NCBI GenBank assembly: GCA_040755575.1
Contig: JBFMAS010000321.1
Coordinates: forward strand, 1 to 36,031
Origin: Thermodesulfobacteriota bacterium
Lineage (GTDB): Bacteria > Desulfobacterota > Binatia > UBA12015
Direction: 5' to 3'
Length of the DNA stretch: 36,031 nucleotides
In this document: positions 3,368 to 36,031 of the stretch, in pieces
Numbering within the stretch: position 1 is the stretch's first letter
How the letters are laid out: the number at the start of each line of letters is the position of its first letter
Translations under genes and position numbers: made by a program
Notes under the pieces: model-generated
The model's database searches: none
The model's input: only the letters and a program-made list of their open reading frames with translations
What the model was told of the DNA's origin: nothing

Positions 3368-3500
3368 CGGGCACCCTCCAGTGCGAGGAATCTCGTGAGA
3401 ATGAAGTCTTGCACGACGCATTTTGGACGGTCAAACGCGTCCCTTTTTTTGACTCGACGCCTCGCGGCGCCGAGGACGAGGGCGGCCGAGCCCGTGCCGG

Positions 3501-4439: not shown

Positions 4440-4487
4440 CGCGGCGCGATGCGTATCAGGCCGGCACTGCGGACGCGATGGAACACC

Positions 4488-7786: not shown

Positions 7787-9276
7787 CGGATCTCCGCGGT
7801 GGTGTCGCGTCGTGCCGCCGACGCACCGTCCACGCGACGCGTCAGCGCGTCGGCCGCCGGCGCCCGGCCATGCACGCCGTACGCATTACGCAGCTCGTCG
7901 AACGACTCCGCCGTCGCACGAACGAAAGCGCCGAGATCGGGGACGAGCTCGTAGCTCGCGTTGAACCCCCAGAACAGCTCCCCATTGTAGCTGAACAGCG
8001 CGATCCCGAGCCCGCAGCGGTCGAGCAGCGGCACGAGAGGGTAGATCTTCTCGAGACGTGCCCCGAGCAGATAGAGCGGGACGTGCGGTCCGGGGACGTT
8101 CGTCACCACCATGTTCATCGGCCCTGACGCGAGCCGGACGCCCCAAGAGATCAAGGAGGCTGGCGCCCATTCCGCCGCGGCCATCATCATCTCGACGGCG
8201 ACGGCGCTCCGCGAACGCTTCAGCGCCGACGTCGCCTCGTGGATCGCTTGCAGCCGCGACCGCACGTCCGGGTTGCCGATGGGGAGCGGAAGCAGCCAGG
8301 CCGACACGTGGTTCCCGGGCATCGGACGGGGCTCGCCGCGCCGGAGGTTGACCGGTGCGGACACGCGGAAATCGCCGTCCGCAGACGATCCGCGACTCGC
8401 CAGGAACCTTCGCAGCGCGCCCGCAACGGTTGCGAGGACGACGTCGTTGAGGGAGCAGCCGGCCGCCTTGCTCACCGCTCGAACGTCCTCGAGAGGAACC
8501 GAATGCCAGTCGAACCGGCGGTGCGCGGTCAGGGCGCCGTTCAGCGGACTCCGCACGGAAGACGCCGTCGCCCAGCCGAACAGCTCGCGCAGCGCGCGAA
8601 GACGGGTTGCCACGTCCGTGCGCAGGTCGACCGTCGCGCGCACGAAGTCGATCAGCTCTCGTGCGAGCTTCATCGGCAGGTCCGCCCGCCGCCAGGAGGC
8701 GTCGCTGAACAGCGTCCAGGAAGAGGGAGCCGGCCGCGGCCAGTAAGGGACCTCCGGGCCCGCATCGAGCGTTTCTCGAGTCGTCGACAGCAGGATGCCG
8801 ACCAGGTCCGCACCGGCAACGCCGTCGATCATGCAGTGATGAAACTTGCTGACGACGGCGAAACGGCCGCCGGCGAGCCCCTCGACGAGCCACATCTCCC
8901 ACAACGGACGGTTGCGATCGAGCTGCTGCTCGAGGATCTGCGCGGACAGCGCCTTGAGCTGCGCGTCCGTACCCGGCCGCGGAAGGCTCGTGAGCCTGAT
9001 GTGGTAGTCGAGATCGAAGCGTGGATCGTCGACCCAGACGGGATGGTTCTCCAGGGGAATCCACTTCAGCTTCTGCCTGCATCGGGGAACGAGGTGAACG
9101 AGCGAAGCGACTCGATGCGTGAACGCGTCGGCGTCGACTCCTCCATCGGCGTTCTCGAGCGAGCCCGCCTCGAAGATCTGCACGGCGCCGACGTGCATGT
9201 GTACGGACGGCGTTTCCGCCACCAGGAACGCGTTGTCCAGCGCCGAGAGCCGCTCGTACGCGGCCGAGGCGATCAC
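7783..9276 (-). CDS. Wax ester synthase/diacylglycerol acyltransferase (WS/DGAT)
   Basis: RLSALDNAFL, MHVG, WVDDPRFDLDYH, LDRNRPLWE, catalytic HHCMIDG (HHxxxDG), TNVPGP; stop overlaps the GT4 start. Confidence 0.92.
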   Translation of the reverse strand: MIASAAYERLSALDNAFLVAETPSVHMHVGAVQIFEAGSLENADGGVDADAFTHRVASLVHLVPRCRQKLKWIPLENHPVWVDDPRFDLDYHIRLTSLPRPGTDAQLKALSAQILEQQLDRNRPLWEMWLVEGLAGGRFAVVSKFHHCMIDGVAGADLVGILLSTTRETLDAGPEVPYWPRPAPSSWTLFSDASWRRADLPMKLARELIDFVRATVDLRTDVATRLRALRELFGWATASSVRSPLNGALTAHRRFDWHSVPLEDVRAVSKAAGCSLNDVVLATVAGALRRFLASRGSSADGDFRVSAPVNLRRGEPRPMPGNHVSAWLLPLPIGNPDVRSRLQAIHEATSALKRSRSAVAVEMMMAAAEWAPASLISWGVRLASGPMNMVVTNVPGPHVPLYLLGARLEKIYPLVPLLDRCGLGIALFSYNGELFWGFNASYELVPDLGAFVRATAESFDELRNAYGVHGRAPAADALTRRVDGASAARRDTTAEIR

Positions 9277-9507
9277 CGTGCACCGCCCGGCAGCTCGCTC
9301 GGGGAGGGCGGTGCGAGGGCTCGCCGCGACACGGATGCAGTCCTCGCTCGTCTCACGAAGCCGCCAGCCAGAATCGGAAAATGGATGAACGCGCTCATAT
9401 GCTCCTCGACGAATCGCGACGGTCCAGCCATGGAGCTGTCCCTCCCGACGTCTTGTTCTTCGCTCTCTTCGCCGGAGCGGGGTTTGCCGATCGAAGGGCG
9501 CAGCCCT

Positions 9508-9832
9508 TCAATGAATTTGTTTTGACGCCGGAGGCCGCCACCCGAGGTCGTGGCATCTGGCACACGTCGGAAAGACGGTCCTGAGCCGCCCCCGATAGCC
9601 GATCAGGCCGTACGTCTCGCGTGCCGCGGTGCCGTCGAGAGAGCCCGGAATCGAAACTTCCGTCGAGATCGACTTGCCGCAGCTCGCGCACTCGACGCGT
9701 AGCGTGACGTTGTCCTCGGCACGCAGCGCGCTGCCCCTAGCGGCCATGGCGGCCCACGAGAGCCGGCTCGATATGAAGCTTGACGAGACTGATGCCGATG
9801 CCGGCGGGTCGAGTCGTGATGCCCTTGCCCAT
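9508..9832 (-). pseudogene. Small CxxC...CxxC zinc-ribbon protein, apparently split by a 1-nt frameshift near 9753-9755 (or an intact 79-aa ORF 9508-9747)
   Basis: SD-like AAAGGGGG before ATG 9832 gives a 31-aa ORF; removing one G in GTG-G-GCC joins it to ORF 9747-9508 containing CASC and CARC. Confidence 0.45.
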
Positions 9833-10029
9833 GAACGCGCCCCCTTTCGGAGTCCGCGCCGAGCACACGTGGGTAGGACAGGGCCCCTACACGACTCGCG
9901 CTGCGGGGCTCAAAACGAACTCGATGGAGAGCTTACGCCGCGCCGTACGTCGGCGCAACCGAGCGCTCGCGGCGTCATCGACGACGCCGTCGGCGCAGCG
10001 CCGCCGACCGAGCGCCGCAAGCTGCGACT

Positions 10030-11261: not shown

Positions 11262-11427
11262 GCTCGGCCAGGACGCGCGGCGGCCGGGGCGCAGACGCCA
11301 CGGCTGGCATCGCACCTCGCAGGCAGCCACGCGGGCGCTGCGATGCGAACGGATGGTTCCGCGGACAGCCTTGCGGCTGCGGGGGGTCGGGTCTAGCGTG
11401 AAGGCAACGTCCTCGAAGGGAGGTGCC

Positions 11428-24757: not shown

Positions 24758-26278
24758 CTACGCTTCGTCGACGTGCCGTCGAAGCACGATGGCGCGAACC
24801 GTGGTCTCCGCGGAGCAGGAGAGCCGGAGCTGGTGGAGCCGGCCGGTGAGCTCCACTCGCACCGGACGCGGCCCGAGATCGACCGGCCGCCCGTCGAGGA
24901 CGAGACGCGGCAGCGGCCCGGTGGTGCGGACGGCCACGTCGTACTCGCCGGCCGGGAGCCACAGCCGCCGCTCGAAGCTCCACGCCGGCCGGCAAACGAT
25001 CCGGAAACGGCCCTGCGGTTGCGGGACCTGCGGGTTCATGAGCAGCAGGCTGCCGAGATCGAGTGCGCCGTTTCGGCCGGCGCGCTGCGGCAAGAGCACG
25101 CTCGCACCGAGAGCGAGCGCCGCGAGCCCCGCCGCCACGCCGGCCTTCCGTCCGAGTCGCACCAGCTCGTAGGCAGCTCCCGCGCACAGGAGCGGATAGG
25201 CGAGCTGGTAGCGCCACATGAACAAGGACGAGTCGACGGCGACGAGCAGCAGAACGGCCGGTCCCCAGAGCACGAACAGCTCCCGCGCGCGCCGGCCGGC
25301 GAGCGCGGCTGCCGCTCCGATCGCGAACAGCGCCAGGTAGGCCGGCGTCAGGACGTAGTGGCTGCGCGCCATGAGGGGTGCGAGCGGCGCGCCGTGCCAC
25401 GAGAAGCTCAGGTAGAAGTAGGATGCCGGGTCGTAGAGCAGCGAGAGCTGGTGCGCGATCTTGGAGGCGCCGTACACACGCACGCGGCCGACCTCGTGCG
25501 ACGGGTGCAGGAGGCCGTCGAGGTACGCCGTCGGGCTCGTGAAGCACGCGAGCACCACGAGGCTCGTGACCCCCCAAGCGAGCATGCCGCGGCTCCAGCC
25601 CCGCTGCCCGCTCCGCGCGATGGGAACGAGGACCATGGCAAGGAGGCCCGTCTGCTTCGCCGCTGCGAGCAGTCCCGTCACGATCCCGGCCCGCACCCAT
25701 GGCCCGAGTCCAGGCCGCGGGTCGAGCAGCGTGATGGCGAGGAGTACGGCCAGAGGTGCGAGGAACGGATCGAAGTTGCCGATCGACCCGTAGGTGACGG
25801 CCGGCGGAAAGACGGCATAGAGCAGGGCCGCGAGGAGCCCGCACGCCGTGCCACCGCCGAGCTGGCCAACCAGCCGGGGGAGCAGGCCGACGGCCACCGT
25901 GTCAGCCGCCGCGTTCACCAGGCGGCCGAGCAGCAGAGCGGGCTCCGGCCAGCCCGGACGAACGAGCCGAATGACCACGCCGGCGACGTAATCGAAGAGA
26001 CACGGGTGACCGAGGCGCGCGTCCTTTCCCCAATCGCTCCAGGGCGCGAGCGCTCCCGTGGCAGGGTCCAGTCGAAGGTGGTCCCGTGGGTGGTAACGAA
26101 GGAAGCGCAACGCATCGCCCGCAGGGAGCGAGGCAAGCGCGAAGGCGTCGCTGACGGCGTGCCTCTCGTCGGAGAAGACGAAGGCAGTCGCCGCGTTCCA
26201 CACCCGCAGGCCAGCACCGAGGACGAGGATCGCCGCGAGCGCGAGCCGGGCAAGGGATCCGTGCGACGTCGCCCTCAT
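24758..26278 (-). CDS. GT-C fold (ArnT/PMT-like) membrane glycosyltransferase
   Basis: N-terminal TM followed by FSDE, GHPCLF, GRLVNA, LLAALLYAVFP, GLLAAAKQTG; multiple TM segments. Confidence 0.75.
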   Translation of the reverse strand: MRATSHGSLARLALAAILVLGAGLRVWNAATAFVFSDERHAVSDAFALASLPAGDALRFLRYHPRDHLRLDPATGALAPWSDWGKDARLGHPCLFDYVAGVVIRLVRPGWPEPALLLGRLVNAAADTVAVGLLPRLVGQLGGGTACGLLAALLYAVFPPAVTYGSIGNFDPFLAPLAVLLAITLLDPRPGLGPWVRAGIVTGLLAAAKQTGLLAMVLVPIARSGQRGWSRGMLAWGVTSLVVLACFTSPTAYLDGLLHPSHEVGRVRVYGASKIAHQLSLLYDPASYFYLSFSWHGAPLAPLMARSHYVLTPAYLALFAIGAAAALAGRRARELFVLWGPAVLLLVAVDSSLFMWRYQLAYPLLCAGAAYELVRLGRKAGVAAGLAALALGASVLLPQRAGRNGALDLGSLLLMNPQVPQPQGRFRIVCRPAWSFERRLWLPAGEYDVAVRTTGPLPRLVLDGRPVDLGPRPVRVELTGRLHQLRLSCSAETTVRAIVLRRHVDEA

Positions 26279-26645
26279 CTGCGGGGGATGAAATGAATGC
26301 CCGGGGACGTCGAGGGCTCGAGTCCGGGGCAGTGCGCGCAGCTCCGGCATCGCTCGACGACGTCATACGCCTCGGTCCGCGCGGCGGATAGAGCGCACGA
26401 GGCGTGCGGCGAGCCGTTTGCCGCGCAGCCCGTGAAGACGAAGTCGTTGCTCGACAGCGCCGGGGCGTGGCTACGCGGGCAGCGAGGCGCTCGTCAAGAA
26501 GAGGGTCCCGCTCCGAGCTCTGCAACCAAGCGCAGCCGGCGCGCATGCCCGATTGCCGCTCTTCGGGGGCACGGCGACCCGCTCGCCACCCGACCGCGCC
26601 ATTCGGCCGGGGCGGTACGGGGTGCTCGTACGGCCGACCGTCATC

Positions 26646-27494
26646 CTAGCGTGCGACACCCTCTTCGCCGGCGGCGAGCCGCGCCGGCGGCTCCACGCCC
26701 CACACCCCGTTCAGGAACCGCACGATCTCCCCCGTGAGCCGCTCGGGGTCGAGGCGCAGCTCGAACATCGACTTGGCCTGGACGAGACGTGCACCCGGGA
26801 TCTGCTGCGCGAGGTTCTCGGCATCGCTGAAGGGATGGATCAGGTCGTTCTCGTGCCCGATGATCAGCGTCGGCGCGACGATCGCACGCCGCTCTTCGAT
26901 CTCGGGCGCTACGGGACCCACGAGAATGCCGTGCAGCACCGCGGCGATCGCCTCGGGCTTCATCGAGAACGTGCCGAGGAAGCTGTCGACCAGATCGTTC
27001 CCGCTCCGTGGCAACCACCGGACGAGCGCGCTCACCGAGCCGAAGAGCCGTCCGCCGAAGCTGACGGCGAGCAGCAGCGGGACGAAAAGGCTGGCAGCCG
27101 CCGGCGTCGCCCATTCGAGCACCGGCATCTCGACGAGCAGCGCCGCGACCCGGCCGGGGGCCTGCACCGCGACGTGTAGCGAGACATTGGCACCCAGCGA
27201 CACGCCGCCCACCACGGCCCGCTGGACACCGAGCTCGTCGAGCAGGGCGATCACCTGGCGCGCGTAGCGGTCCATGCGGTGCTGCGTGGCGTGGGGTGGC
27301 TTGTCGCTCGTGCCATGACCGAGCAGGTCGAGGAGGACGACGCGAAACCCGTGCGCGGCGAGGCTGCGCGCCAGCCGCCGATTCACGCCCGCGTCGAGCA
27401 GCAGCCCGTTGGTGAGAACCACCACGCGCTCGCCCTCGCCGTGTACCTCGTAGCCGAGCGTGTATCCCCGGTGGTGGAACCTGTGAAGCGTCAT
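26646..27494 (-). CDS. Alpha/beta hydrolase
   Basis: LLDLLGHGTSD, nucleophile GVSLG (GxSxG), PTLIIGHENDLIHP; true start at MTLHRF (27494). Confidence 0.85.
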   Translation of the reverse strand: MTLHRFHHRGYTLGYEVHGEGERVVVLTNGLLLDAGVNRRLARSLAAHGFRVVLLDLLGHGTSDKPPHATQHRMDRYARQVIALLDELGVQRAVVGGVSLGANVSLHVAVQAPGRVAALLVEMPVLEWATPAAASLFVPLLLAVSFGGRLFGSVSALVRWLPRSGNDLVDSFLGTFSMKPEAIAAVLHGILVGPVAPEIEERRAIVAPTLIIGHENDLIHPFSDAENLAQQIPGARLVQAKSMFELRLDPERLTGEIVRFLNGVWGVEPPARLAAGEEGVAR

Positions 27495-27705
27495 CGCCCT
27501 CTGCGTAGCATGCCGCTCGGACACCGTGCTCTCGCTCTCGGCCTGCTCGGTCGGACGGTGGGGTGGCGCAGAAGCCAAGATGCGGTCGCTCCGCCTGAAG
27601 CGGCGCGGGGCTGGCGTTCGAGTGGGCACGAGCGGCGCGCGGCTGCTCGCTGCGTTGCCGACGGCGAGCCTGCTGCGCCGCTCCTCGCTCGGACCGGGGA
27701 CGACA

Positions 27706-27728
27706 AACCCGAGGCAGCGCCTGGGGTT
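27706..27728 (-). terminator. Hairpin just downstream of the tRNA 3' fragment (probable original tRNA-Lys terminator)
   Basis: AACCCGAGGC-AGC-GCCTGGGGTT, 9 of 10 stem pairs, 5 nt after the tRNA 3' end. Confidence 0.5.
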
Positions 27729-27733
27729 CGGAA

Positions 27734-27777
27734 TGGGCCGCCCCGGGATCGAACCGAGGACCCGCTGATTAAGAGTC
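27734..27777 (-). pseudogene. 3' fragment of tRNA-Lys(CTT) forming the att direct repeat of the integrated element
   Basis: Minus strand GA-CTCTTAA-TCAGC-GGGTC-CTCGG-TTCGATC-CCGGG-GCGGCCC-A: anticodon loop, T arm and acceptor 3' strand present; 5' acceptor strand and D arm absent. Confidence 0.85.
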
Positions 27778-27816
27778 TGTGGGCAAGCGTCAGGCGCAAC
27801 AAGCGCTTTTCCGAAG

Positions 27817-27890
27817 TCCTTGTGGTGCAAGGATTCAGTAGGGTTCCCGGGGGTGCGGTAGGTTGACAAGCCCGTGCACTGTATGTGCAC
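27817..27890 (+). promoter_or_regulatory. Integrase upstream region with candidate arm/regulatory sites
   Basis: Inverted repeat TCCTTG-N5-CAAGGA (27817-27833); perfect TTGACA (27863-27868); palindrome GTGCAC twice at 11-bp spacing (27874, 27885). Confidence 0.4.
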
Positions 27891-27900
27891 TTGAGCTGCC

Positions 27901-29130
27901 ATGCCGAAGCGCCTCCCCGAGCTGACTGCCGCGCGGCTGTCCCGGCTGAAGCCGCGCGATCGCCAATACGAGGTCCGCGACGGCGCCGTGCCGGGTCTCG
28001 TCATCCGCGTCCAGCCGTCGGGCGTGCTGCGCTGGGGCTTCAGGGCGCGCCAGGACGGTCGCCTGCGCTACATCCTGATCGGCGGCCACCCCGAGCTCTC
28101 GCTCGCCGCAGCGCGCATCCGAGCGCGAGCGCTGCGTGCCCGCCTCGATGCCGGCGAGCGTCCTGCCGACGAGCGCGCCGAGCGTCGTGGCGAGCCGACC
28201 CTCGGCGAGCTGTGGCAGGACTACAAGAAGCGCCACCGAAAGGCCGAGCGCTCCGCGACGGAAGATGAGCGCCGGTGGGCGCGCCAGCTCAAGCGCTGGG
28301 AGTCGAAGATCGCAAGCTCGATCCCGCGCCGCGACGTCGCTCGCTTGATGCACCGCATCGCCGAGCAGAGCGGCCCTTACGAGGCCAACCGCACGCTCGC
28401 GCTGCTGCGCCACCTGTACCGGTGGGCGATCGATCAGGAGCTGATCGACGGCGACAACCCTGCCTGGGGGCTTCGCCGTGAGCCCGAGGCGCCGCGCGAA
28501 CGAGCCTTGACGGCGACGGAGACGCGGAAGCTGCTCGAGGCGGTCGCGGCCGAGCCCGATCCGCTGTGGCAAGGCTACTTCCTCTTGCTGCTCCTGACGG
28601 GCTGTCGCCGCACCGAGCTGCTGTCGGCGCGCTGGCAGTGGTTCCGGCCGGATCACGTGCCGCCGGTGCTCGTGCTACCGCGCACCGCCACGAAGCAGAA
28701 GAGAGAGCACGTCGTGGTGCTCTCGAGCGAGGCCCTACAGGTGCTCTTGCAGCTTCCGTCGCGCGCGACCTCGGCGTTCCTTTTCCCGTCTGACAAGGGT
28801 GGACCACGCACCGAGCCCAAGCGCGTGTGGCAAGAGGTCCGAACCCGTGCCGGCCTCGGCGATCTTCGCATCCACGACCTTCGGCACGCGGTGGGCAGCT
28901 CGCTCGGCGACGCTCGCGAAAGCGCGTTCATCATCAAGCGCGCGCTCGGGCACTCGCAGCTCGCAACCACCGACCGCTACGTGCACCCCGAGCTCGAAGC
29001 GACGCACCGGGCGCTCGAGGCGCACGGCGCGAAGCTGCGCGCGCTGCGATCGAACAACGAGAACAACGAAAGCGAGCAGCGGGCGACCGTGCCCCCAGCC
29101 ACGACGGTCGACGTCACTCCGGACGAGTGA
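27901..29130 (+). CDS. int: Tyrosine recombinase/integrase, P4-like with N-terminal arm-binding domain
   Basis: N-terminal YEVRDGAVPGLVIRVQPSG...IGGHPELSLAAAR; catalytic TGCRRTE (R), TKQK (K), IHDLRH (HxxR), LGHS, TTDRY (Y). Confidence 0.95.
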   Translation: MPKRLPELTAARLSRLKPRDRQYEVRDGAVPGLVIRVQPSGVLRWGFRARQDGRLRYILIGGHPELSLAAARIRARALRARLDAGERPADERAERRGEPTLGELWQDYKKRHRKAERSATEDERRWARQLKRWESKIASSIPRRDVARLMHRIAEQSGPYEANRTLALLRHLYRWAIDQELIDGDNPAWGLRREPEAPRERALTATETRKLLEAVAAEPDPLWQGYFLLLLLTGCRRTELLSARWQWFRPDHVPPVLVLPRTATKQKREHVVVLSSEALQVLLQLPSRATSAFLFPSDKGGPRTEPKRVWQEVRTRAGLGDLRIHDLRHAVGSSLGDARESAFIIKRALGHSQLATTDRYVHPELEATHRALEAHGAKLRALRSNNENNESEQRATVPPATTVDVTPDE

Positions 29131-29147
29131 TGGTCAAGGAGAGGGCT

Positions 29148-29357
29148 ATGAAGGTCCGATCGCACTGCAGCGGAAGAGTCCATCGAGTCCGCCTGATCCG
29201 GATTCCGTTCCTCGAGGACGGCGACGGTGAGCTGCACGCCGTGGGCGATCCGCTCACGCTGATCGAGGCAAGCTCATCCGAACGTCGCGCCCTGCGCCGC
29301 GCCGGATTCCGCTTCGCCAACGAGCGCGCGCCCTCCGTGAAGTCGACGACGCGATGA
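29148..29357 (+). CDS. Small hypothetical protein (69 aa)
   Basis: AAGGAGAGG SD before ATG 29148; shares a motif with the next ORF. Confidence 0.55.
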   Translation: MKVRSHCSGRVHRVRLIRIPFLEDGDGELHAVGDPLTLIEASSSERRALRRAGFRFANERAPSVKSTTR

Positions 29358-29451
29358 CGCCACGGCGACCGTCGCCGCGGCGTCCACGTGCTCGGCTCTG
29401 CCGCCTGCCGAGCATGCGATCAACCATGGCGGCGGGTGAGGAGACAACGCG

Positions 29452-29844
29452 ATGTTGCTCATGGAAACCGCAGGCCACGATCTGATCCGGTGCGAGCTCA
29501 AGCTTGGCCTTGTCGTGTGGAGGCACGACAGCCCGACGCCCAGCACGCTCGAGGGCTACGGGCATCGCAACTACAAGCTCGTGCATGCCGATGAAGCGGA
29601 ACGCCGGATGCTCGAGAAGCACGGTATCAAGCTCGAGGAGCTCGAATTGAAGAACGTCGAGCTGCACCAGCGCGTGCCGACCGCGCAGGCGAAGGCGCGG
29701 TGGAAGAAGTGGAAGAAGGAGCGCACGATCTACCGGCAGGTGAATGCCGAGGTGCGCGCGCGCCTTCGCGCCGTCGAGAAGGCCGAGAGCCAGCACATGA
29801 ACGGCGGCGCCGTCAACGGTGCGGAGATGAACGGCGCAGCGTGA
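29452..29844 (+). CDS. Hypothetical protein with charged helical C-terminus
   Basis: GAGGAG SD; protein-like composition; followed by a strong hairpin. Confidence 0.7.
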   Translation: MLLMETAGHDLIRCELKLGLVVWRHDSPTPSTLEGYGHRNYKLVHADEAERRMLEKHGIKLEELELKNVELHQRVPTAQAKARWKKWKKERTIYRQVNAEVRARLRAVEKAESQHMNGGAVNGAEMNGAA

Positions 29845-29858
29845 CGAGCTGAAGAGGT

Positions 29859-29892
29859 GGCCCGCCTCGGCGTTCGCGCGCCGGGGCGGGCC
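29859..29892 (+). terminator. Strong GC hairpin after the 29452 gene (no U-tract)
   Basis: GGCCCGCCTCGGCG-TTCGCG-CGCCGGGGCGGGCC, 14-bp stem with one G-U. Confidence 0.5.
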
Positions 29893-29908
29893 GGGATGTG
29901 GAACACCC

Positions 29909-30886
29909 TTGCCGAGGAGTGATTCCGTGCCGAGACGTAGACCTACCGCTAAGACGGCGCAAGGGAGGGCGGCGAGCCCACCCACCGTCTCCGAGCATGA
30001 GCTGCCCTACGTGGCGCTGGCCCATAGCCTCTCGGGCTCGCCCACCGACAACTACCGGCACGCCGTCGTTCGTTCCGCTTTCATGGCGGAGCTCTGCACG
30101 CACCCCCGCGTCATCGACGCATTCAACGGCTGGGGAGTGGAGACCGGGATCTTCGCCGCGCTCGAGGCCCTCCTCGCTGCAGGCGACGCGGTGGCTAGCA
30201 GGTTGAACCTGCCGAACCGAGCCGCGCTCAACACGCCGGCTGCCGGCGATGCGATCGCCGCTCTCGACTCACGAGCTCGCCGGCGACTCGAACGCCTTGC
30301 GGTCAAGTACGAGAAGGCTTCCGAGCAACTTGGCCGACGAGTGAAGAACGGCATCCGCCGCCTCGGCCCGGCCGCGGAAGCGCTTGTGCGCGACTTGCTG
30401 CGCCCGGGATGGCCCTGGGTGTCGTGGGATCTTACGGAGACGTTCGCCAACTGCATCGAGGGTTGCGCCGTTGGTGCCTCGGAGGGCGTCCGCACTGTTT
30501 GGGTTGCCGATCCCGCACCCAAGGTATCGATGACGTTCGCCACGCACGAGAACGAGGACCGCGCAACGGCGATACAGCGCTTGACGGCTGAGTACCTCGC
30601 GGCCTTCATCAAGCTGGCGCAGCAGCCCAGTCACGGCGCGAAGAAGGGGCGCCTACCGCGAGCTAAGGGTCACGCAACGCTCACCAGGGACGCGCGCTGG
30701 TACTACCGCCATCACGTCCTCGGAGTCCCAACCGACGAGCTCGCCCGAGAATACTGCGCAACTGCGGGCGGGTATCACCAAGGCCGCGATCACACGTGGC
30801 GGAACGACCGCCGAACCGTCTCCGACGGCATCAATAACGCAGTGCAGCTGCTCGGCGAGATCCCGCAGTACGCGTGGCGGGATTAG
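29909..30886 (+). CDS. Hypothetical protein with C-terminal HTH-like segment (putative element regulator)
   Basis: 325-aa ORF directly before alpA; C-terminal RDARWYYRHHVLGVPTDELAREY...RRTVSDGINNAVQLL; start uncertain. Confidence 0.6.
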   Translation: MPRSDSVPRRRPTAKTAQGRAASPPTVSEHELPYVALAHSLSGSPTDNYRHAVVRSAFMAELCTHPRVIDAFNGWGVETGIFAALEALLAAGDAVASRLNLPNRAALNTPAAGDAIAALDSRARRRLERLAVKYEKASEQLGRRVKNGIRRLGPAAEALVRDLLRPGWPWVSWDLTETFANCIEGCAVGASEGVRTVWVADPAPKVSMTFATHENEDRATAIQRLTAEYLAAFIKLAQQPSHGAKKGRLPRAKGHATLTRDARWYYRHHVLGVPTDELAREYCATAGGYHQGRDHTWRNDRRTVSDGINNAVQLLGEIPQYAWRD

Positions 30887-30916
30887 TGTTGCTCGCGTCA
30901 GGCTGGCTAATCCCGC
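30860..30916. promoter_or_regulatory. Triple ATCCCGC motif including a perfect 10-bp inverted repeat upstream of alpA
   Basis: ATCCCGC 30860-30866; GCGGGATTAG 30877-30886; CTAATCCCGC 30907-30916. Confidence 0.55.
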
Positions 30917-31001
30917 GTCGCCCGAGAGCGACCAACCGCGTACGCCCCCGACAGCGCATAGGCGCGCATGACGGAGCGCCCGAGCGCGGATGGAGGCGAC
31001 G

Positions 31002-31235
31002 ATGGGAGAGTGGATGCGGACGGCGGCAGCGGCACAGTATCTTGGCTTGACCGCGGCATCGCTCAAGACCTTGCGGGCGCGAGGCCGAGGCCCGCGCTTC
31101 CGGAAGCACGGGAAGATCGTGCTCTATGCCCGGCGCGACTGCGACGAGTGGGCAGGACGGCAGTCGGCCATCCGAGAGACGGCGGACAGCAGCGCCGAGG
31201 CTTCTGCACGACGCCGGCGCAGCAAGGCAGCGTGA
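31002..31235 (+). CDS. AlpA/excisionase-like HTH DNA-binding protein
   Basis: WMRTAAAAQYLGLTAASLKTLRARGRGPRFRKHGKIVLYARRDCDEW is a typical HTH_17/AlpA pattern; GGAGG SD. Confidence 0.9.
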   Translation: MGEWMRTAAAAQYLGLTAASLKTLRARGRGPRFRKHGKIVLYARRDCDEWAGRQSAIRETADSSAEASARRRRSKAA

Positions 31236-32839
31236 TCCGCCATGACCGCGCGGGGTGGTGGTGGAGTTGGGACGTGAGCGCGCATAGTAGCGCGGCCGAC
31301 CGAGGTGGGAGCCCCCGAGCCGGCCGCCAAGATGTCCCTGAGGGTGGACATGCCGAGCATCGCGCAGGAGCACACGACGCGCAAGAGGCTCCGATCGCCG
31401 ATATCCTCGCCCACTACGAGCGCCTGTCGGCGCGCGATCAGTACATCGTACGCCCCTCGGTCGCCGAGCGACTGCGCGCGCTCGGCGTCGAGGACGCCGA
31501 CGAGCTGCTGCCCGACCCGCTGGGCGGGCCGTCAACCACATCGCGCGACGATGTGCCGCCGCTGGGCGCAGAGGCCGACCCGGTCGGCGGCGACGCGCGT
31601 GGCAAGCGCGCGTGGCCATCGCCGCCAGCGCCGGAGGCATACCACGGGCTCGCTGGCGATATCGTGCGCGCGATCGAGCCCGACACCGAGGCCGATTCGG
31701 TTGCGCTCCTCGCGCACGTGCTCGCCGGCTACGGCTCGATGATCAACCGGCAGGCGCACTACCGCGTGGAGGACACCGAGCACCGCGCCAATGAGTACTA
31801 TGTGCTTGTCGGCGCGACCGCGAAGGGGCGCAAGGGAACAGCCGAGCGGCGTATTCGCCGTCTGCTCCGCAGCGTGGATGAGGCATGGGACAACGAGCGG
31901 GTCGTCTCGGGTCTGTCGTCCGGCGAGGGACTGCTGTGGGCGGTGCGAGACGCGATCTATCGGCCAGATCGCAACCGCAAGACGGGCATGGTCGAGCAGG
32001 TGCTCGTCGATCCCGGCATCGCGGACAAGCGGTTGTTGGTGATCGAGCCCGAGATCGCGAGCGCGCTGCGCGCGATGCAAAGGCAAGGCAACACACTGTC
32101 GCCCATCCTGCGCCGCGCGTGGGACGGAGAGCAGGTTCTCGCGGCGTTGACGAAGAATTCGCCAGCTCGCGCCACCGGCGCGCATATCTCCGTGATCGCA
32201 CATGTGACCGAGGGAGAGCTTCGGCGCGAACTCGACGCCGTTGAACAAGCGAACGGCTACGGCAATCGGCACCTGTACCTGTGCGTGCGCCGAGCTCGCG
32301 TGCTGCCCTTCGGCGGCGGCGCGAGCACCGACCTCGCGCCGCTCGTCGAGCGCCTCGAGCGCGCCGTCAAGCACGGGCGCGCGACCGGCAGGGTGGCGAT
32401 GGACGCCGAGGCCGCTGACGCATGGACGCGCGTCTATCCGGTGCTCTCCGGCGAGCGGCCGGGGCTGCTCGGCGCGCTGACAGCCCGCGCGGAGGCGCAC
32501 GTGGTCCGGCTCGCGCTGCTGTATGCACTGCTCGACTGCGCGAGCGAGATCCAGCACGAGCACCTACTCGCCGCGCTCGCCCTGTGGGCCTATGCCGAGG
32601 CGTCGACGCAGTACGTCTTCGGGGACGCGACCGGCGATCCGATCGCCGACGAGATCCTCGAGGCGCTGCGACGCAGCGCGACCGGGCTGACCCGGACCGA
32701 GATCCGCGACCTGTTCGGGCGCCATCATGGCTCCGGCCGGCTCGGCGGCGCTCTCGTGGCCCTGGCTCGGGCCGGGCTCGCCACCGTCAGCACCGAGCAG
32801 ACCGGCGGCCGCCCGGCCGAGCGGTGGCGGGCAGCGTAG
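31232..32839 (+). CDS. DUF3987/YfjI-type replication ATPase (putative helicase) with C-terminal winged helix
   Basis: GTG overlaps the alpA stop; GLAGDIVRAIEPDTEAD, Walker-A-like LVGATAKGRKGT, GLSSGEGL, LLVIEPE, LRRAWDG, ANGYGNR; C-terminal ILEAL...GLTRTEIRDLF...GGRPAERW. Confidence 0.8.
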   Translation: MIRHDRAGWWWSWDVSAHSSAADRGGSPRAGRQDVPEGGHAEHRAGAHDAQEAPIADILAHYERLSARDQYIVRPSVAERLRALGVEDADELLPDPLGGPSTTSRDDVPPLGAEADPVGGDARGKRAWPSPPAPEAYHGLAGDIVRAIEPDTEADSVALLAHVLAGYGSMINRQAHYRVEDTEHRANEYYVLVGATAKGRKGTAERRIRRLLRSVDEAWDNERVVSGLSSGEGLLWAVRDAIYRPDRNRKTGMVEQVLVDPGIADKRLLVIEPEIASALRAMQRQGNTLSPILRRAWDGEQVLAALTKNSPARATGAHISVIAHVTEGELRRELDAVEQANGYGNRHLYLCVRRARVLPFGGGASTDLAPLVERLERAVKHGRATGRVAMDAEAADAWTRVYPVLSGERPGLLGALTARAEAHVVRLALLYALLDCASEIQHEHLLAALALWAYAEASTQYVFGDATGDPIADEILEALRRSATGLTRTEIRDLFGRHHGSGRLGGALVALARAGLATVSTEQTGGRPAERWRAA

Positions 32840-32842
32840 GGG

Positions 32843-32989
32843 GCTTTGGTCGCTTATGGCGCTTTTGTCGCAACACCGCGTCGACTACGTGGCCCTGGCT
32901 CGTGGTGTTGCTGCGCGCCGGCAGGTCGAGAATGAGCCCGCCGAGCGGGGAGCACCGAGTGCGACAAAAGCGACCTATGCGACAAAAGG
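32843..32989. repeat. Two inverted arrays of three 9-bp iterons (consensus GCGACAAAA), putative replication origin
   Basis: Left gctttggtc-gcttatggc-gcttttgtc-gca (32843-32872); right t-gcgacaaaa-gcgacctat-gcgacaaaa-g (32960-32988); arms are 25/29 identical as an inverted repeat with an 87-bp spacer. Confidence 0.75.
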
Positions 32990-33263
32990 TCGGTCGGCGG
33001 CTCCAGCGGGGTCGCTCCGCGTCGAGGTCGACGCCCTCGAGCCGCGCCCAGGGCCCGTCCGCCTGAACGGGTGGACCGTCGTCCTGCACCCCGAGCGCTG
33101 CATCCGGGCCGACCTCGCCTCGCTCGAGCGCGTGGTCGGCGCCCTTGACGAGGCACGCCGGGCCGGCGACCGCCGCGCCGCCGACTACGAGGGCGACGCC
33201 GAGGAACTGCTCGCGCGGCTCGAGGCGTGCGGCGCCAAGGCCCGCATCGTGGAGGACCAGTGA
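32856..33263 (+). CDS. Hypothetical protein overlapping the putative ori
   Basis: Open frame with protein-like C-terminal half (GPVRLNGWTVVLHPERCIRADL...LLARLEACG); start uncertain. Confidence 0.5.
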   Translation: MALLSQHRVDYVALARGVAARRQVENEPAERGAPSATKATYATKGRSAAPAGSLRVEVDALEPRPGPVRLNGWTVVLHPERCIRADLASLERVVGALDEARRAGDRRAADYEGDAEELLARLEACGAKARIVEDQ

Positions 33264-33511
33264 CCGCCCCGCATGCCTGCGTTGACTCCCGCGCCGCGCT
33301 GCCCGTCCGCTTCGGGCCCCGTCGGGTGGCGACGTTGCCGGCGCGAATCCAAGCGATCATCGCGGATTCGGCACCCCTTGGTCGGCACCCTCGGGGGTCA
33401 GACGATGAGGTGATCTCGCGGTGTGAGATTGCGCCCATAGAGATTGCGGGTACGAGCCCATTCGCCGTGCTCGAGGATCGGGCGCCGGCAGCGGCGGGGG
33501 CGCTCACGGCG

Positions 33512-33826
33512 TCAGGCCTCGAGCTCCTCGAACTGGCTGATCTTCACGGCTCCGTCCGGGAACCGCGCCACGATGTCGAGCTCGCCGCCCATGGCGCGGA
33601 TGTAGCTGCGCAGCGTCGACACGTAGAGATCGCTCTGCTTCTCGAGCTTCGAAATCTGCGGCTGCGTCTTGCCGAGCGCGGTGGCGAGCGCCTCTTGGGT
33701 GAGGTGCCGCGCATTGCGCAGCTCTTGGAGCGGCATCTCGGCCATGAGCGCGCGCGCCCGCTCGTTGGCCCGGCGCCGGCTCTCCGGCGACATCTTCGCG
33801 CGCAGCTCGCTGAACTTCTTAGCCAT
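33512..33826 (-). CDS. higA: HigA-type antitoxin, XRE-family HTH
   Basis: LQELRNARHLTQEALATALGKTQPQISKLEKQSDLYVSTLRSYIRAMGGELDIVARFPD. Confidence 0.9.
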   Translation of the reverse strand: MAKKFSELRAKMSPESRRRANERARALMAEMPLQELRNARHLTQEALATALGKTQPQISKLEKQSDLYVSTLRSYIRAMGGELDIVARFPDGAVKISQFEELEA

Positions 33827-33829
33827 GGC

Positions 33830-34183
33830 TCACGTTTCCTTCTCGATCTCTTTGAGGTGCTCGTCGTACAGGTCGTCCGCGATCGGCACGTACTCTTCGT
33901 ACCAGCGGTCGTTGCCCGTCTTGTCTCCACCGATGAGCAGAATTGCCGTGCGTCGGGGATCGAAGGCGTAGAGCACGCGGTAGGGTCGGCCCTGGTGCTG
34001 CACCCGCAGCTCGCGCATGTGGTCGTGACGCGAGCCGTTCACACCCGAGCTGTACGGGAAGCGGAGCGTCGGCCCGTGCTTCTCGAGCAACTGCACGTAG
34101 GCGTCCACGGATTCTTGCTCTTTCTCGGAGAGGTTGTCCCACCAGCCGCCAAACTGGTCGGTGTATTCAACCTCCCATGCCAC
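33830..34183 (-). CDS. higB: HigB/RelE-superfamily toxin (Gp49-like)
   Basis: WEVEYTDQF..W...L...GP.L.FPYS...MRELR...PYRVLYAFDPRRTAILLIGGDK; toxin precedes the antitoxin. Confidence 0.9.
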   Translation of the reverse strand: MAWEVEYTDQFGGWWDNLSEKEQESVDAYVQLLEKHGPTLRFPYSSGVNGSRHDHMRELRVQHQGRPYRVLYAFDPRRTAILLIGGDKTGNDRWYEEYVPIADDLYDEHLKEIEKET

Positions 34184-34184
34184 G

Positions 34185-34219
34185 AGGGTTATATAACTCT
34201 GGTGCTATTATCGAGTCAA
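34185..34219 (-). promoter_or_regulatory. AT-rich TA promoter/operator
   Basis: Minus strand TTGACT...GTTATATAAC-cctc-GTG; perfect palindrome GTTATATAAC (34188-34197); no SD before the GTG start. Confidence 0.6.
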
Positions 34220-34277
34220 CTGGAGGCAGCGCAGAACCGCCACAGCCCAACGTGCGCGCGGGAACGGGAGGTGAGGT

Positions 34278-34460
34278 GTGGGTGACGAGACGGGACGGCG
34301 CTGCCTGACATGCGGCTGCCTCGAGCGGCTGCACGCCCCGTTGGCGCCGTGGTGCGCGGGGTGCGGTGCACCGTGCCCGCCGGGCGAGCCGGCGTCGCCT
34401 GAGGGAGGCCGGGCGCGCGTGGAGGCAGCGCTCGCGCGCTACGCGGAGCGCCGCCGATGA
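34278..34460 (+). CDS. Small Cys-rich (CxxC...CxxC) zinc-finger-like protein
   Basis: CLTCGC...H...CAGC...C; GGAGGTGAGG SD; ATGA overlap with the next gene. Confidence 0.55.
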   Translation: MGDETGRRCLTCGCLERLHAPLAPWCAGCGAPCPPGEPASPEGGRARVEAALARYAERRR

Positions 34461-34735
34461 ACTGTGGTGCGAAGGGTCGCCGGAACGAGTGGCGCTCTCG
34501 ACGGCTACTCGAGGCGGCCGGCTACAGCGTCACGCGCGCCGCAGGCTCGCTTGGCTGTTGGGATCTCATCGGGGTCTCGGCGACGGACTTCATCTTGGTC
34601 CAGGTGAAGAGCAACCGGCCGCCGTCGCCGGCAGAGCGCGAGGCCCTCGCCGACTTCGCCGTGCCGTCCAACTGCAAGCGGCTGATTCACGTCTGGCGCG
34701 ACAGGGAACGGCTACCGCGCGTTACGGAGCTCTGA
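34457..34735 (+). CDS. Archaeal Hjc-like Holliday junction resolvase (PD-(D/E)xK)
   Basis: KG...E....LLE..GY.V.RAAGS....DLIG......LVQVKS follows the Hjc motif order, with Q in place of E in ExK. Confidence 0.75.
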   Translation: MNCGAKGRRNEWRSRRLLEAAGYSVTRAAGSLGCWDLIGVSATDFILVQVKSNRPPSPAEREALADFAVPSNCKRLIHVWRDRERLPRVTEL

Positions 34736-34799
34736 GCGGATGATCGTCGAACTTCTGACCCGGGGGCTCGTCGGCGTCCGCAACGAAAGGGAGAATACC

Positions 34800-34961
34800 G
34801 TGCAAAGATTCGAGCAGATCGAGTCACAGCGCGCGCAGGCGCGCGAGCGGGAACAGGTCGCTATCCGCGCTGCGATCGAGGCCGAGGCGGAGGCGCAGAA
34901 GCGCAACGAGAGCGCGCTGAGAAGCCTCGTCGACACGTATCGACTACGGCCGCCGGCGTGA
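34800..34961 (+). CDS. Small coiled-coil hypothetical protein
   Basis: AAGGGAG SD before GTG 34800; E/R/A-rich helix. Confidence 0.55.
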   Translation: MQRFEQIESQRAQAREREQVAIRAAIEAEAEAQKRNESALRSLVDTYRLRPPA

Positions 34962-34988
34962 TATTCTTGACGGGCGGAGGTGAGGTGG

Positions 34989-35339
34989 ATGGCAACCAGC
35001 GACGTTGATGCTGCGCTCCGACCCTTGGTCGCGCAGCTCGTGGCCGAGCGTCAGCGAAAGATCGCGGCTCGGCGAGCGGAAGCCGAGCGAAGGAACAACG
35101 CCATCGCGTCGCAGCTCGCGACGCAGGTGACGGCCAACGCCGAGCGGCTGCTTCGTGCGGCCCTCGCGGGCAAGGCCGAGGCGCGATCCGCGCGTTGCAC
35201 GACGAGGGAGCAGTTTGCCGCCGGCAACCTCTCGATTGCCGACCTCAACGCGACGCCCATCGGCGCTTCGCGCACGGTCACGACGCCATCCGGGCGGCAG
35301 CACGTGTGGACCGTGATCGAGCACGCGGTGACCAGGTGA
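34989..35339 (+). CDS. Hypothetical protein (helical N-terminus, beta-hairpin-like C-terminus)
   Basis: GGAGGTGAGG SD; GTGA coupling to the next gene. Confidence 0.65.
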   Translation: MATSDVDAALRPLVAQLVAERQRKIAARRAEAERRNNAIASQLATQVTANAERLLRAALAGKAEARSARCTTREQFAAGNLSIADLNATPIGASRTVTTPSGRQHVWTVIEHAVTR

Positions 35340-35851
35340 ACACCGAGGACGCTCTCGGGACCGTTCTGCGTGGGAACGTCGAGGCCCTCGTCAGGGCACT
35401 GCTCGAGCTCACCCCACGCGCAGCCCGCCACGAGGCTGCGCACGCCGTCGCGGCGCATCTCGTCGGCGGTCGCGTAATCGCCGTCGCGATCATCCCCCGG
35501 CGCGATGAATCGGGGTGGGTCGACGGCGACTGTCACTGGCGGCCCGGACCGACCACGACGCTTCGCGACCGCGCCGTGGTCGCCCTCGCCGGCGCGGTCG
35601 CATCGAACGGTGGCGGGCATGGCGACGAACGGTTTGCGCGAACTGTCGCCGACGAGCTCGTTGAGCAGTGGCGCGAGGAGGCCCGTGAGCTCGTCGAGCA
35701 GCATCGGCCGATGATCGAGCGCCTCGCCGCCGCGCTCCTCGAGCGACGCGAGCTCGCCGAGGACGAGGTGCGAGCAATCCTGAGCGCGAGCGACGAAGAG
35801 CCGCCCGTGGTTGATGCATCCCGAGTTGATGCAGTGGAGGCGCCCGGGTGA
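35336..35851 (+). CDS. Stand-alone FtsH-type M41-like zinc peptidase domain
   Basis: ARHEAAHAV (HExxH), AIIPR, VALAG, GHGD (candidate third Zn ligand), IERLAAALLERRELAEDEV. Confidence 0.75.
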   Translation: MNTEDALGTVLRGNVEALVRALLELTPRAARHEAAHAVAAHLVGGRVIAVAIIPRRDESGWVDGDCHWRPGPTTTLRDRAVVALAGAVASNGGGHGDERFARTVADELVEQWREEARELVEQHRPMIERLAAALLERRELAEDEVRAILSASDEEPPVVDASRVDAVEAPG

Positions 35852-36031
35852 GCACGACGGCGAGCGACCGACTCCGCGGTGCCGAGCTCCGGCGCCAATG
35901 CGTGGAGCTCCGCCGATCGGGGCTGACGTACGAGGAGATCGGCAAGCAGGTCGGCATCACGCCCCAAGGTGCGCACAAGCACGTCAAGCGCGCGCTCGAG
36001 GCTCTCGCCTCCAAGACTGCGGAGGACGCGA
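35848..36031 (+). CDS. HTH protein, terminase-small-subunit-like (partial, runs off the window)
   Basis: GTG coupled to the previous stop; own translation ELRRQCVELRRSGLTYEEIGKQVGITPQGAHKHVKRALEAL; absent from the ORF track because it has no stop in the window. Confidence 0.6.
   Translation, partial: MSTTASDRLRGAELRRQCVELRRSGLTYEEIGKQVGITPQGAHKHVKRALEALASKTAEDA

Follow-up and report, generated by a model that had tools for sequence, protein, structure and literature searches.

Near the right-hand end of contig JBFMAS010000321.1, from the Thermodesulfobacteriota (Binatia) assembly GCA_040755575.1, a run of small and mostly co-oriented genes follows a fragment of a tRNA gene, and the question raised by this locus is whether it represents a phage satellite, the left part of an ordinary prophage or an integrative element of some other kind. 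The stretch analysed, termed the window, is the entire contig (C321; 36,031 bp) and belongs to a metagenome-assembled genome (MAG) of 793 contigs, 6.19 Mb, 90.6% completeness and ~70% GC. In a preliminary description, positions 27,734 to 36,031 had been put forward as a candidate new family of satellites akin to the phage-inducible chromosomal islands (PICIs). PICIs are defined in a survey (PMC10085698) that, in the portions available, gives a median size of 9.5 kb, assigns 74% of the detected PICIs to a 'Type B' with four of five components, and places more than 99.9% of the PICIs detected by SatelliteFinder in Proteobacteria and Firmicutes, putative PICIs of Mycobacterium and Rhodococcus being named as well. 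The gene content and order of the window's island, which can be read directly from the DNA, include four of the five PICI core components (integrase, AlpA/MerR-type regulator, replicase and small terminase subunit, TerS) in the canonical order within ~8.4 kb (Table 1). Our favoured reading, to which we give slightly better than even chances, is a PICI-like phage satellite integrated in the 3' end of tRNA-Lys(CTT), probably a variant of the known PICI-like kind and no new class.

The left edge of the island is marked by a 49-bp fragment of the tRNA-Lys(CTT) 3' part on the minus strand, after which, as had been proposed, the integrase gene follows; it begins 124 nt from the fragment, congruent with the PICI trait of an integrase beside its attachment site. 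The preliminary description had named a second attachment (att) copy as a check to be made, and this copy is indeed present on contig C396 of the same bin, where positions 3831-3879 are identical to 27729-27777 at 49 of 49 nt and lie within an intact tRNA-Lys(CTT) gene that closes a Pro-Arg-His-Lys tRNA cluster. Left of the fragment lies an alpha/beta hydrolase gene, and because this gene has a 78%-identical ortholog in a related genus, that side is taken as host DNA. On C396 the other side of the tRNA is syntenic chromosome, where the sigma-54 activator has a 92%-identical translated match in a genome of the same genus (G001). ARAGORN found no complete tRNA anywhere in the window, and Rfam gave no match in 26000-36031 at E ≤ 1. 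The element runs off the end of C321 at 36031, and the island material visible to us is hence ~8.3 kb on this contig and 1.1 kb beside the second att copy (C396:3880-5106).

Central to the satellite reading is the gene in which the contig ends, described earlier as encoding a helix-turn-helix (HTH) or TerS-like protein. A full-length relative (P0007; 145 aa, 81% identity), encoded on the same 7,451-bp contig as an 87%-identical relative of the preceding M41-like protein, matches phrog_645 over residues 2-119 (E 1.9e-24), and with tblastn it recovers 47 phage records, from phages of Arthrobacter (34), Microbacterium (8), Streptomyces (2), Gordonia (2) and Stenotrophomonas (1). The homolog is gene 1 in Arthrobacter phage Sonny, where it overlaps the gene of the large terminase subunit (TerL) with portal and protease next, and gp31 in Streptomyces phage mu1/6, directly upstream of TerL, portal, protease and capsid. 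Homology and gene position thus point to a phage origin of the family, and the last gene is, as judged by sequence, a TerS homolog of phage ancestry, in agreement with the earlier proposal and supplying the small terminase component of a PICI. As an observation on annotation, the TerS-position genes NC_041933.1 gene 1 and NC_007967.1 gp31 are labelled 'Rnase E' in RefSeq and PHROGs (phrog_645) and HTH DNA-binding protein in GenBank; the former label looks like a propagated annotation error.

How this TerS type is deployed differs between wider and closer relatives. A scan with the TerS alignment, restricted to one genome per species, returned 32 loci, 3 of them already known; in the remaining 29, the first downstream open reading frame (ORF) is a large terminase in 19, TerL lies 2 kb downstream in one, none is seen in 8 and the contig edge intervenes in one. 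Within the same bacterial family the type occurs in four of 19 other genomes (class-wide in 25 of 401, including the unpublished genome G599), and in these four Pfam, and PHROGs where run, detected neither TerL nor portal nor capsid. In G004 (C129), 2.3 kb of small accessory ORFs, among them a Panacea-domain antitoxin, lie after TerS and before an intact tRNA-Lys(TTT) on the opposite strand, which is the geometry predicted for the window's island. G009 (C372) has TerS, a 73-aa ORF and then an integrase, while C238 of G017 holds TerS, a 567-aa ORF without PHROG or Pfam match, Prim-Pol/PriCT, DUF3987, HTH_17, integrase and tRNA-Thr within 7.8 kb; in G002, host genes lie 1.4 kb upstream of TerS. 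The public records of three of these MAGs carry the labels 'Klebsiella pneumoniae' (G002; L093), 'Alphaproteobacteria bacterium' (G009; L095) and 'uncultured Enterobacteriaceae bacterium' (G004; L096), which contradict each other and misfit the DNA composition (70% GC).

A complete example was found in an isolate, Mycobacterium sp. TY814 (L108, 4996-17866), as a 12.8-kb island at tRNA-Leu(CAA), bounded by perfect 24-bp direct repeats formed by the 3' end of that tRNA. It encodes an integrase, a 619-aa DUF3987-like ORF and TerS, then a DNA invertase, an endonuclease and a methyltransferase; neither among the four ORFs after TerS nor with a tblastn panel of four TerL proteins was a TerL detected, the last 4 kb being without family annotation. 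Just upstream of its tRNA, at 3811-4405, lies an array of 85-nt tandem repeats. A further locus in an Acidobacteriota MAG (L100) combines TerS with an HTH gene, a small ORF and a DUF3987-type helicase. The islands of G004, G009 and G017 C238 and that of L108 resemble the window's island in TerS family (39-56% identity to P0007), integrase, DUF3987/primase-type replicase, tRNA integration and the absence of a detectable TerL; unlike it, they have besides TerS (and DUF3987 in some) no genes in common with it, and in G017 C238 TerS lies upstream of rep, the gene order varying among TerS islands.

The remaining components of the PICI layout were recovered as well. The integrase matches Phage_integrase (70 bits, E 2.7e-19), Arm-DNA-bind_3 (52 bits, E 7.2e-14) and phrog_1 (E 1.6e-56), and a genome scan with it as query gave two remote matches only. 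It is followed by three hypothetical genes, as previously listed, since orfA, orfB and orfC have no Pfam or PHROG match (orfB at E ≤ 0.01). Of the gene called alpA, the regulator itself stands, as an HTH_17 and excisionase-like protein (HTH_17 27.8 bits at a cut-off of 27, E 3.2e-6; phrog_66 'excisionase and transcriptional regulator', E 5.9e-8), but it matches PF12728 and not PF05930 (AlpA); as a MerR-like protein it represents the alpA/merR/stl regulation module of PICIs. The replicase is a DUF3987 protein (37.7 bits, E 1.8e-9) in which Pfam found no primase domain, as had been noted, and a PriCT-DUF3987 protein is described as a 5'-3' helicase in the available part of PMC11724360. Directly 3' of its stop lies the iteron array that the preliminary description had also seen: the 11-mer TGCGACAAAAG has three exact copies, all within 32862-32988, against 0.25 expected and with 0 of 100 shuffles reaching three, and a degenerate fourth copy at 32844-32853 completes two inverted pairs. 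Together, the DUF3987 match and the enriched iterons provide the replicase with adjacent origin.

We next weighed these findings against the alternative of an ordinary temperate prophage truncated where the contig stops, its genes for TerL, portal, capsid, tail and lysis being unassembled or unbinned. In a siphovirus prophage, too, the left half canonically runs through an integrase, early genes, replication genes, a junction-resolving nuclease and terS; the contig breaks off within terS, and TerL follows this TerS family in 20 of the 29 wider loci and in phages Sonny and mu1/6. Resolvase-type nucleases, to which the Hjc-like gene of the island may belong, are moreover common ahead of the late genes of temperate phages. 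On the other hand, the bin gave no match to TerL_ATPase, Terminase_6N, Phage_capsid or Phage_portal (PF03354, PF03237, PF05065, PF04860) or to phrog_38, and tblastn with six phage terminases and two portals was equally negative. A single marginal match to phrog_2 was considered as a terminase and rejected, the protein being a PhoH-like ATPase (PDB 3B85, E 9.7e-85). Absence from a bin of 793 contigs is weak evidence, and bins are sometimes chimeric; yet a chromosomal prophage would have the coverage of the chromosome and should usually be binned with it, so that the absence does count against a chromosomal prophage of 40 kb. Furthermore, the distance from int to terS is just ~8 kb, no CI/Cro-type immunity pair is seen (the sole Xre-type HTH being HigA), and family searches of the visible 8.3 kb and of the 1.1 kb beside the second att copy found no phage structural or lysis genes, the latter holding two small orphan ORFs and no lysis or tail genes. 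Finally, all four family-level relatives of the TerS gene sit in small islands without detectable TerL. We therefore regard a truncated prophage as unlikely. In G017, a distant TerS-like match (E 8.1e-4; C375, 5018-5994) stands directly before a 546-aa ORF that matches Terminase_6N weakly (E 7.2e-4). The two form, from these matches, a possible phage-type TerS-TerL pair in the same genome as the TerL-less island on C238, and would as such show that phage-type and island-type TerS copies can co-reside.

The second alternative, to which we likewise assign a low probability, is an integrative element other than a satellite, such as a self-replicating island or an actinomycete-type transfer element, or a prophage relic, with the TerS-like gene as an HTH regulator or a leftover. 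The replication module does invite this view, as its relatives show it to be promiscuous by sequence comparison. Relatives of DUF3987 at ~50% identity were found at five loci from genomes, in MAGs labelled Actinomycetota, Alphaproteobacteria, Acidimicrobiales and Planctomycetia and without any other island gene common to them, and at L060; a scan of viral contigs with DUF3987 gave no match. They sit in small integrative elements of varied build, including a rep and int element of ~4.5 kb (L013) and a ~10-kb element with HTH_17, Prim-Pol/DUF3987 and cargo (L016); two loci, L014 and L060, also bear large-terminase domains, and L060 in addition a virion-morphogenesis gene. On the latter, an activated-sludge contig of 10,142 bp, positions 2000 to 9936 hold, in order, DUF3987 (50% identical), Phage_tail_S after four small ORFs and, after three further small ORFs, a large terminase in two ORFs (Terminase_6N and 6C); an integrase comes next, and just past it an M41-like gene. 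It is unusual for TerL to adjoin an integrase directly, leaving no space for portal or capsid, and the contig stops just upstream of DUF3987.

Besides this one, the MAG contains at least four related replication modules (C763, L031; C218, L032; C277, L030; C702, L055), which have in common an excisionase-type HTH, a conserved rep N-terminal segment on different ATPase cores and/or an orfD-type gene, and on these fragments, with their int/rep or rep-only modules, no terS is seen. Specifically, C763 carries an excisionase-type HTH, an 840-aa Prim-Pol and DUF3987 protein and then an orfD homolog; the rep proteins of C218 and C277 have the N-terminal segment of the window's rep fused to other ATPase cores (AAA_25 in C277); and C702 has host gltX, HNH, integrase, an AAA_25 rep and a TubC_N-like protein. 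The window's own orfD, which has no Pfam or PHROG match, has its counterparts on C763, in the ORF that follows the Prim-Pol/DUF3987 gene (65% identity), and on C218 (44%), and C521 (L033) encodes a 34-37% paralog of orfC. At this tRNA, G017 has defence-type cargo islands behind an integrase built like the window's (35% identity), and what can be seen of the last gene amounts to a sigma-r4-type HTH alone. Against a regulator or leftover, the 81%-identical full-length homolog retains the entire phrog_645 architecture beyond the HTH, and terS is translationally coupled within an intact, co-oriented operon. TerS together with int and DUF3987/primase moreover recurs in at least five separate islands (G004, G009, G017 C238, L100 and L108), which argues for selection on the combination. 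A conjugative or mobilizable element is disfavoured by the absence of any Pfam match for a relaxase, coupling protein, type IV secretion system or FtsK-like transfer gene in 27734-36031 and C396:3880-5106.

Several observations weigh against the satellite reading all the same. The TerS assignment comes from homology and gene position, the 61 codons before the contig stops encode the HTH alone, and in Foldseek the top full-length rows for the TerS-like model are the small terminases of phages G20c and P74-26 at non-significant E ≥ 0.6. The family is mainly a phage gene, as the wider loci above illustrate. No capsid-morphogenesis or packaging-redirection gene was recognised, a difference from the PICI layout as far as the visible part goes, the ORFs of 27734-36031 giving no capsid-related Pfam or PHROG match and several of them matching no family at all. 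No helper phage is visible, the bin being without a terminase; large terminases are in any case rare in assemblies of this family (PF03354 in 2 of 20, PF03237 in 2 of 20). The two ORFs beside the right-hand att copy have no Pfam or PHROG match, and the one of 212 aa (C396:4345-4983) retrieved only itself among 5.8 billion proteins. The satellite interpretation made in the preliminary description is thus strengthened by the TerS homolog, the second att copy and the TerL-less family islands, but the right-hand part of the element is not in the contig.

The connection between the two contigs is a further point of this kind, as we infer the join of C321 to C396, and the right end of C396 could belong to another island. 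The right end of C321 overlaps no other contig of the bin, and when the C-terminal portion of the full-length TerS homolog was used as tblastn query, no contig with the rest of terS was retrieved. In a related genus, contig C54 of G017 (L047) has two tRNA-Lys 3' fragments 10 kb apart (1292-1335 and 11379-11425), the first interval holding a 2,383-aa protein and IS66, and the second fragment being followed by the 35%-identical integrase and TIR, WD40 and STAND-NTPase cargo. Considering these two att fragments at the same tRNA, tRNA-Lys is a hotspot at which tandem islands are possible, and the right end of C396 is therefore not assignable with certainty to the window's island. A clean empty site was not found: G001 shares the tRNA side of C396, and its downstream flank matches neither the left flank of the window nor the right part of C396; nor is the window's left flank collinear with the tRNA-Lys locus in G001, G007, G008 or G017. 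Positions 4980-5106 of C396 form a 127-nt stretch of ~53% GC that is common, at 99% identity, to C656 (1-127) and C224 (1-123), and on all three contigs it is entered from unique sequence, C656 and C224 carrying ordinary host genes. This low-GC stretch probably marks where an unassembled repeat or insertion sequence begins, and it blocks extension on the right-hand att side. A search of one public run (share 0.06) gave, against the element, solely chance matches of ~40 nt to high-GC DNA.

The features of the island are collected in Table 1. As stated in the preliminary description, nearly all genes are co-oriented and translationally coupled, with GTGA start/stop overlaps at int/orfA, alpA/rep, orfF/M41 and M41/terS, and an overlap of 4 nt between the Zn-ribbon and Hjc-like genes (ATG start 34457, stop ending at 34460). 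GC content at third codon positions (GC3) supports, by its phase, the coding status of orfA. Among 401 genomes of the phylum searched, orfC is present in one, its own, as this copy and the paralog on C521, and its nearest Atlas clusters belong to no named family. Most of the accessory genes conform to their initial designations, namely the inverted higBA pair, both genes of which lie on the minus strand with HTH_37 and Gp49 matches, the Zn-finger gene, here a Zn-ribbon by its CxxC...CxxC pattern, and two small genes after the Hjc-like one. For the Hjc-like gene, the ORF stands and its AlphaFold model (mean predicted confidence, pLDDT, 64) has the alpha-beta-beta-beta-alpha-beta-beta order of the PD-(D/E)XK topology, whereas the assignment to Hjc is weak, with Pfam below cut-off and the best Foldseek rows, archaeal Hjc including that of A. 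fulgidus, at probability 0.92-0.93, template-modelling (TM) score 0.52 and E 0.05.

Table 1. Features of the tRNA-Lys island in the window (positions in C321).
Feature	Position	Strand	Evidence or remark
attL, 49-bp 3' fragment of tRNA-Lys(CTT)	27729-27777	-	reaches from the anticodon stem to a point 5 nt beyond the acceptor end
int, tyrosine integrase, P4-type, with arm-binding N-terminal domain	27901-29130	+	Phage_integrase, Arm-DNA-bind_3, phrog_1
orfA, ~76 aa	29127-29357	+	overlaps int stop (GTGA, or ATG at 29130)
orfB, 130 aa	29452-29844	+	GC3 0.87
orfC, up to 325 aa	29909-30886	+	Atlas record starts at residue 35 (nt 30011)
alpA, AlpA/excisionase-like HTH_17 protein, 81 aa	30990-31235	+	HTH_17, phrog_66
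rep, DUF3987 replicative helicase	31232-32839 (GTG 31232, GTGA overlap with alpA stop) or from GTG 31274	+	DUF3987
Iteron cluster, putative origin	32844-32989	.	two inverted pairs of the 11-mer TGCGACAAAAG
orfD, start uncertain	~32889-33263	+	overlaps part of the iterons; absent from the gene list of the preliminary description
HigA-like HTH antitoxin	33512-33826	-	HTH_37 E 6e-11, HTH_3 E 1.2e-8
HigB/Gp49-like toxin of type II toxin-antitoxin pair	33830-34183	-	Gp49 E 2.2e-21; phrog_3445 'toxin' E 1.5e-19
Zn-ribbon, 60 aa	34278-34460	+	CxxC...CxxC seen by eye in the translation; no family match
Small PD-(D/E)XK nuclease, Hjc-like (tentative), 92 aa	34457-34735	+	Pfam Hjc E 0.002, below cut-off
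orfE, 73 aa	34740-34961	+	from ORF list; no family match
orfF, 119 aa	34980-35339	+	GC3 0.84; no family match
Free-standing FtsH-like (M41) zinc peptidase domain, HEAAH motif, 171 aa	35336-35851	+	Pfam M41, family profile
TerS-like gene, first 61 codons, cut by contig end	35848-36031	+	Sigma70_r4_2 E 8.2e-8; expected full length ~145 aa

The M41 assignment of the gene ahead of terS appears better supported than that of Hjc. Pfam scores the protein at 24.6 bits, below the cut-off of 29.9, but a profile of its five known family members finds FtsH structures in PDB (E 2.4e-6) over the HExxH region and the C-terminal helices, so that the peptidase named in the preliminary description is retained. 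Five small homologs were found in 5.8 billion proteins, with HEAAH invariant. Scans with the M41 alignment gave no match in viral contigs, and in metagenomes the contigs of the 87% and 47% homologs were not among the matches listed; a genome scan with the protein P0005 found no match either. The pair of M41-like protein and TerS is kept together, at 87% (P0002) and 81% (P0007) identity, on the single 7,451-bp metagenome (JGI) contig, and this joint conservation suggests that the two may work together. On the minus strand, antisense to the M41-like gene, a 302-codon frame is open at 35051-35956 with a genome-typical GC3 of 0.81 and would mislead a gene caller based on composition only; homologs and the HEAAH motif identify the gene on the plus strand as the true one. 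In a Thiomonas MAG (L034, 5088-11667), the gene for a small HExxH protein of 37% identity is flanked by a DUF6573 gene and a P4-type integrase and lies downstream of a coupling protein of TraG/VirD4 type; M41-like relatives are thus also present at the integrase end of conjugative-type elements.

Compared with described satellites, the island is most readily aligned with the Gram-negative PICI layout as given in the available portions of PMC10085698: co-oriented int, AlpA/MerR regulator, replicase with adjacent origin and terS, accessory genes between the modules, a visible size near the median and a specific chromosomal site. It would be classed as 'Type B'. Besides the unrecognised fifth component, it departs from PICIs in a TerS of the actinophage phrog_645 type with a sigma-r4 HTH, in a DUF3987 helicase without primase domain as replicase, in the free M41 peptidase coupled to terS and in its high-GC host lineage. 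The claim of a new family nevertheless proved too strong, as int, AlpA/HTH_17 and DUF3987 already form the marker set of PICMIs, the phage-inducible chromosomal minimalist islands found in Vibrionaceae (PMC10803314, in its available portions) and putative PICIs of Mycobacterium and Rhodococcus have been reported (PMC10085698). For the same reason the primase-less DUF3987 replicon is not foreign to satellites, DUF3987 being the 'primase' marker of the PICMI model (PMC10803314). With PICMIs, whose primase marker is DUF3987 or DUF5906, the island shares this core (int, AlpA of PF05930 or PF12728, DUF3987) and a small gene whose overlap with the int stop measures 1 or 4 nt, iolg in PICMIs and orfA here (PMC10803314). 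The prototype PICMI, however, comprises six genes beside fis and lacks a terS homolog (PMC10803314), whereas the window's island is at least 9.5 kb, sits in tRNA-Lys and includes one.

Other satellite types fit less closely. Capsid-forming PICIs (cfPICIs) and P4-like satellites are likewise integrative, with an int/alpA/replicase front half (PMC10085698, available portions). The former, however, require genes for terL, capsid, portal and head-tail connector (also protease), none of which was seen in the window or the bin. With P4-like satellites the island has int and an AlpA-like gene in common; for their other markers (the psu-delta-sid operon, epsilon and the alpha primase) the ORFs scanned returned no Pfam or PHROG match, no dedicated profiles having been used. 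By description only, putative mycobacterial PICIs that resemble the 'small prophage-like elements' PhiRv1/PhiRv2 are similar as small, integrase-bearing, phage-derived islands of high-GC hosts that SatelliteFinder classes as PICI (PMC10085698, same portions). Satellites of high-GC bacteria are also known from Streptomyces (Mulch/Flayer), as far as the available accounts go. In the literature on high-GC satellites, supplementary files aside, we found no mention of a phrog_645-type TerS or of an M41-like satellite gene.

Taken as a PICI-like satellite, the island could operate as follows. The integrase and the HTH_17 AlpA/Xis-like protein, perhaps with orfA, would excise it by recombination between the two att copies; PICMI excision needs alpA, int and the integrase-overlapping gene, and expression of alpA alone triggers it (PMC10803314, available portions). 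The DUF3987 helicase would open the adjacent iteron origin for replication of the island by host primase and polymerase, with orfD as a putative accessory factor in this iteron-dependent step. TerS, translationally coupled to the free FtsH-like peptidase, would then recognise island DNA and recruit a helper phage's large terminase and capsids, the helper being one with a TerS of this family, such that the island might be packaged and transduced without encoding TerL, portal, capsid or tail; PICIs are described as redirecting packaging with a TerS of their own (PMC10085698, available portions). HigBA may serve stabilisation of the island or defence, and the stretch past terS probably comprises a few kb of accessory genes up to the intact tRNA-Lys on C396.

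A bolder proposal, rather doubtful in its entirety though with a real chance of holding, is that the island is a member of a guild of PICI analogs, so far undescribed and spanning phyla. The guild would consist of small int/DUF3987 (or primase) islands, integrated at tRNA genes, that have captured a phrog_645 TerS of the sigma-r4 type to hijack the TerL and capsids of actinophage-like siphoviruses, with, in this lineage, a free FtsH-like peptidase coupled to terS. The terS-coupled peptidase may in that case be a new interference or induction factor, for example one that cleaves a helper or host protein to redirect packaging.

If the satellite reading is correct, the PICI strategy of integrase, own replicon, own small terminase and borrowed capsid would extend to an uncultured high-GC lineage. 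It would do so with a TerS family that in actinophages has so far been annotated just as 'HTH DNA binding protein' or, wrongly, as 'Rnase E'. A phrog_645 gene without adjacent TerL, beside int and DUF3987, could then serve as a marker for satellites that current profile sets may miss, and with L108 a complete 12.8-kb example is available in a cultured isolate. Finally, the free M41 peptidase coupled to terS, with five relatives in 5.8 billion proteins, is a candidate for a new satellite function.

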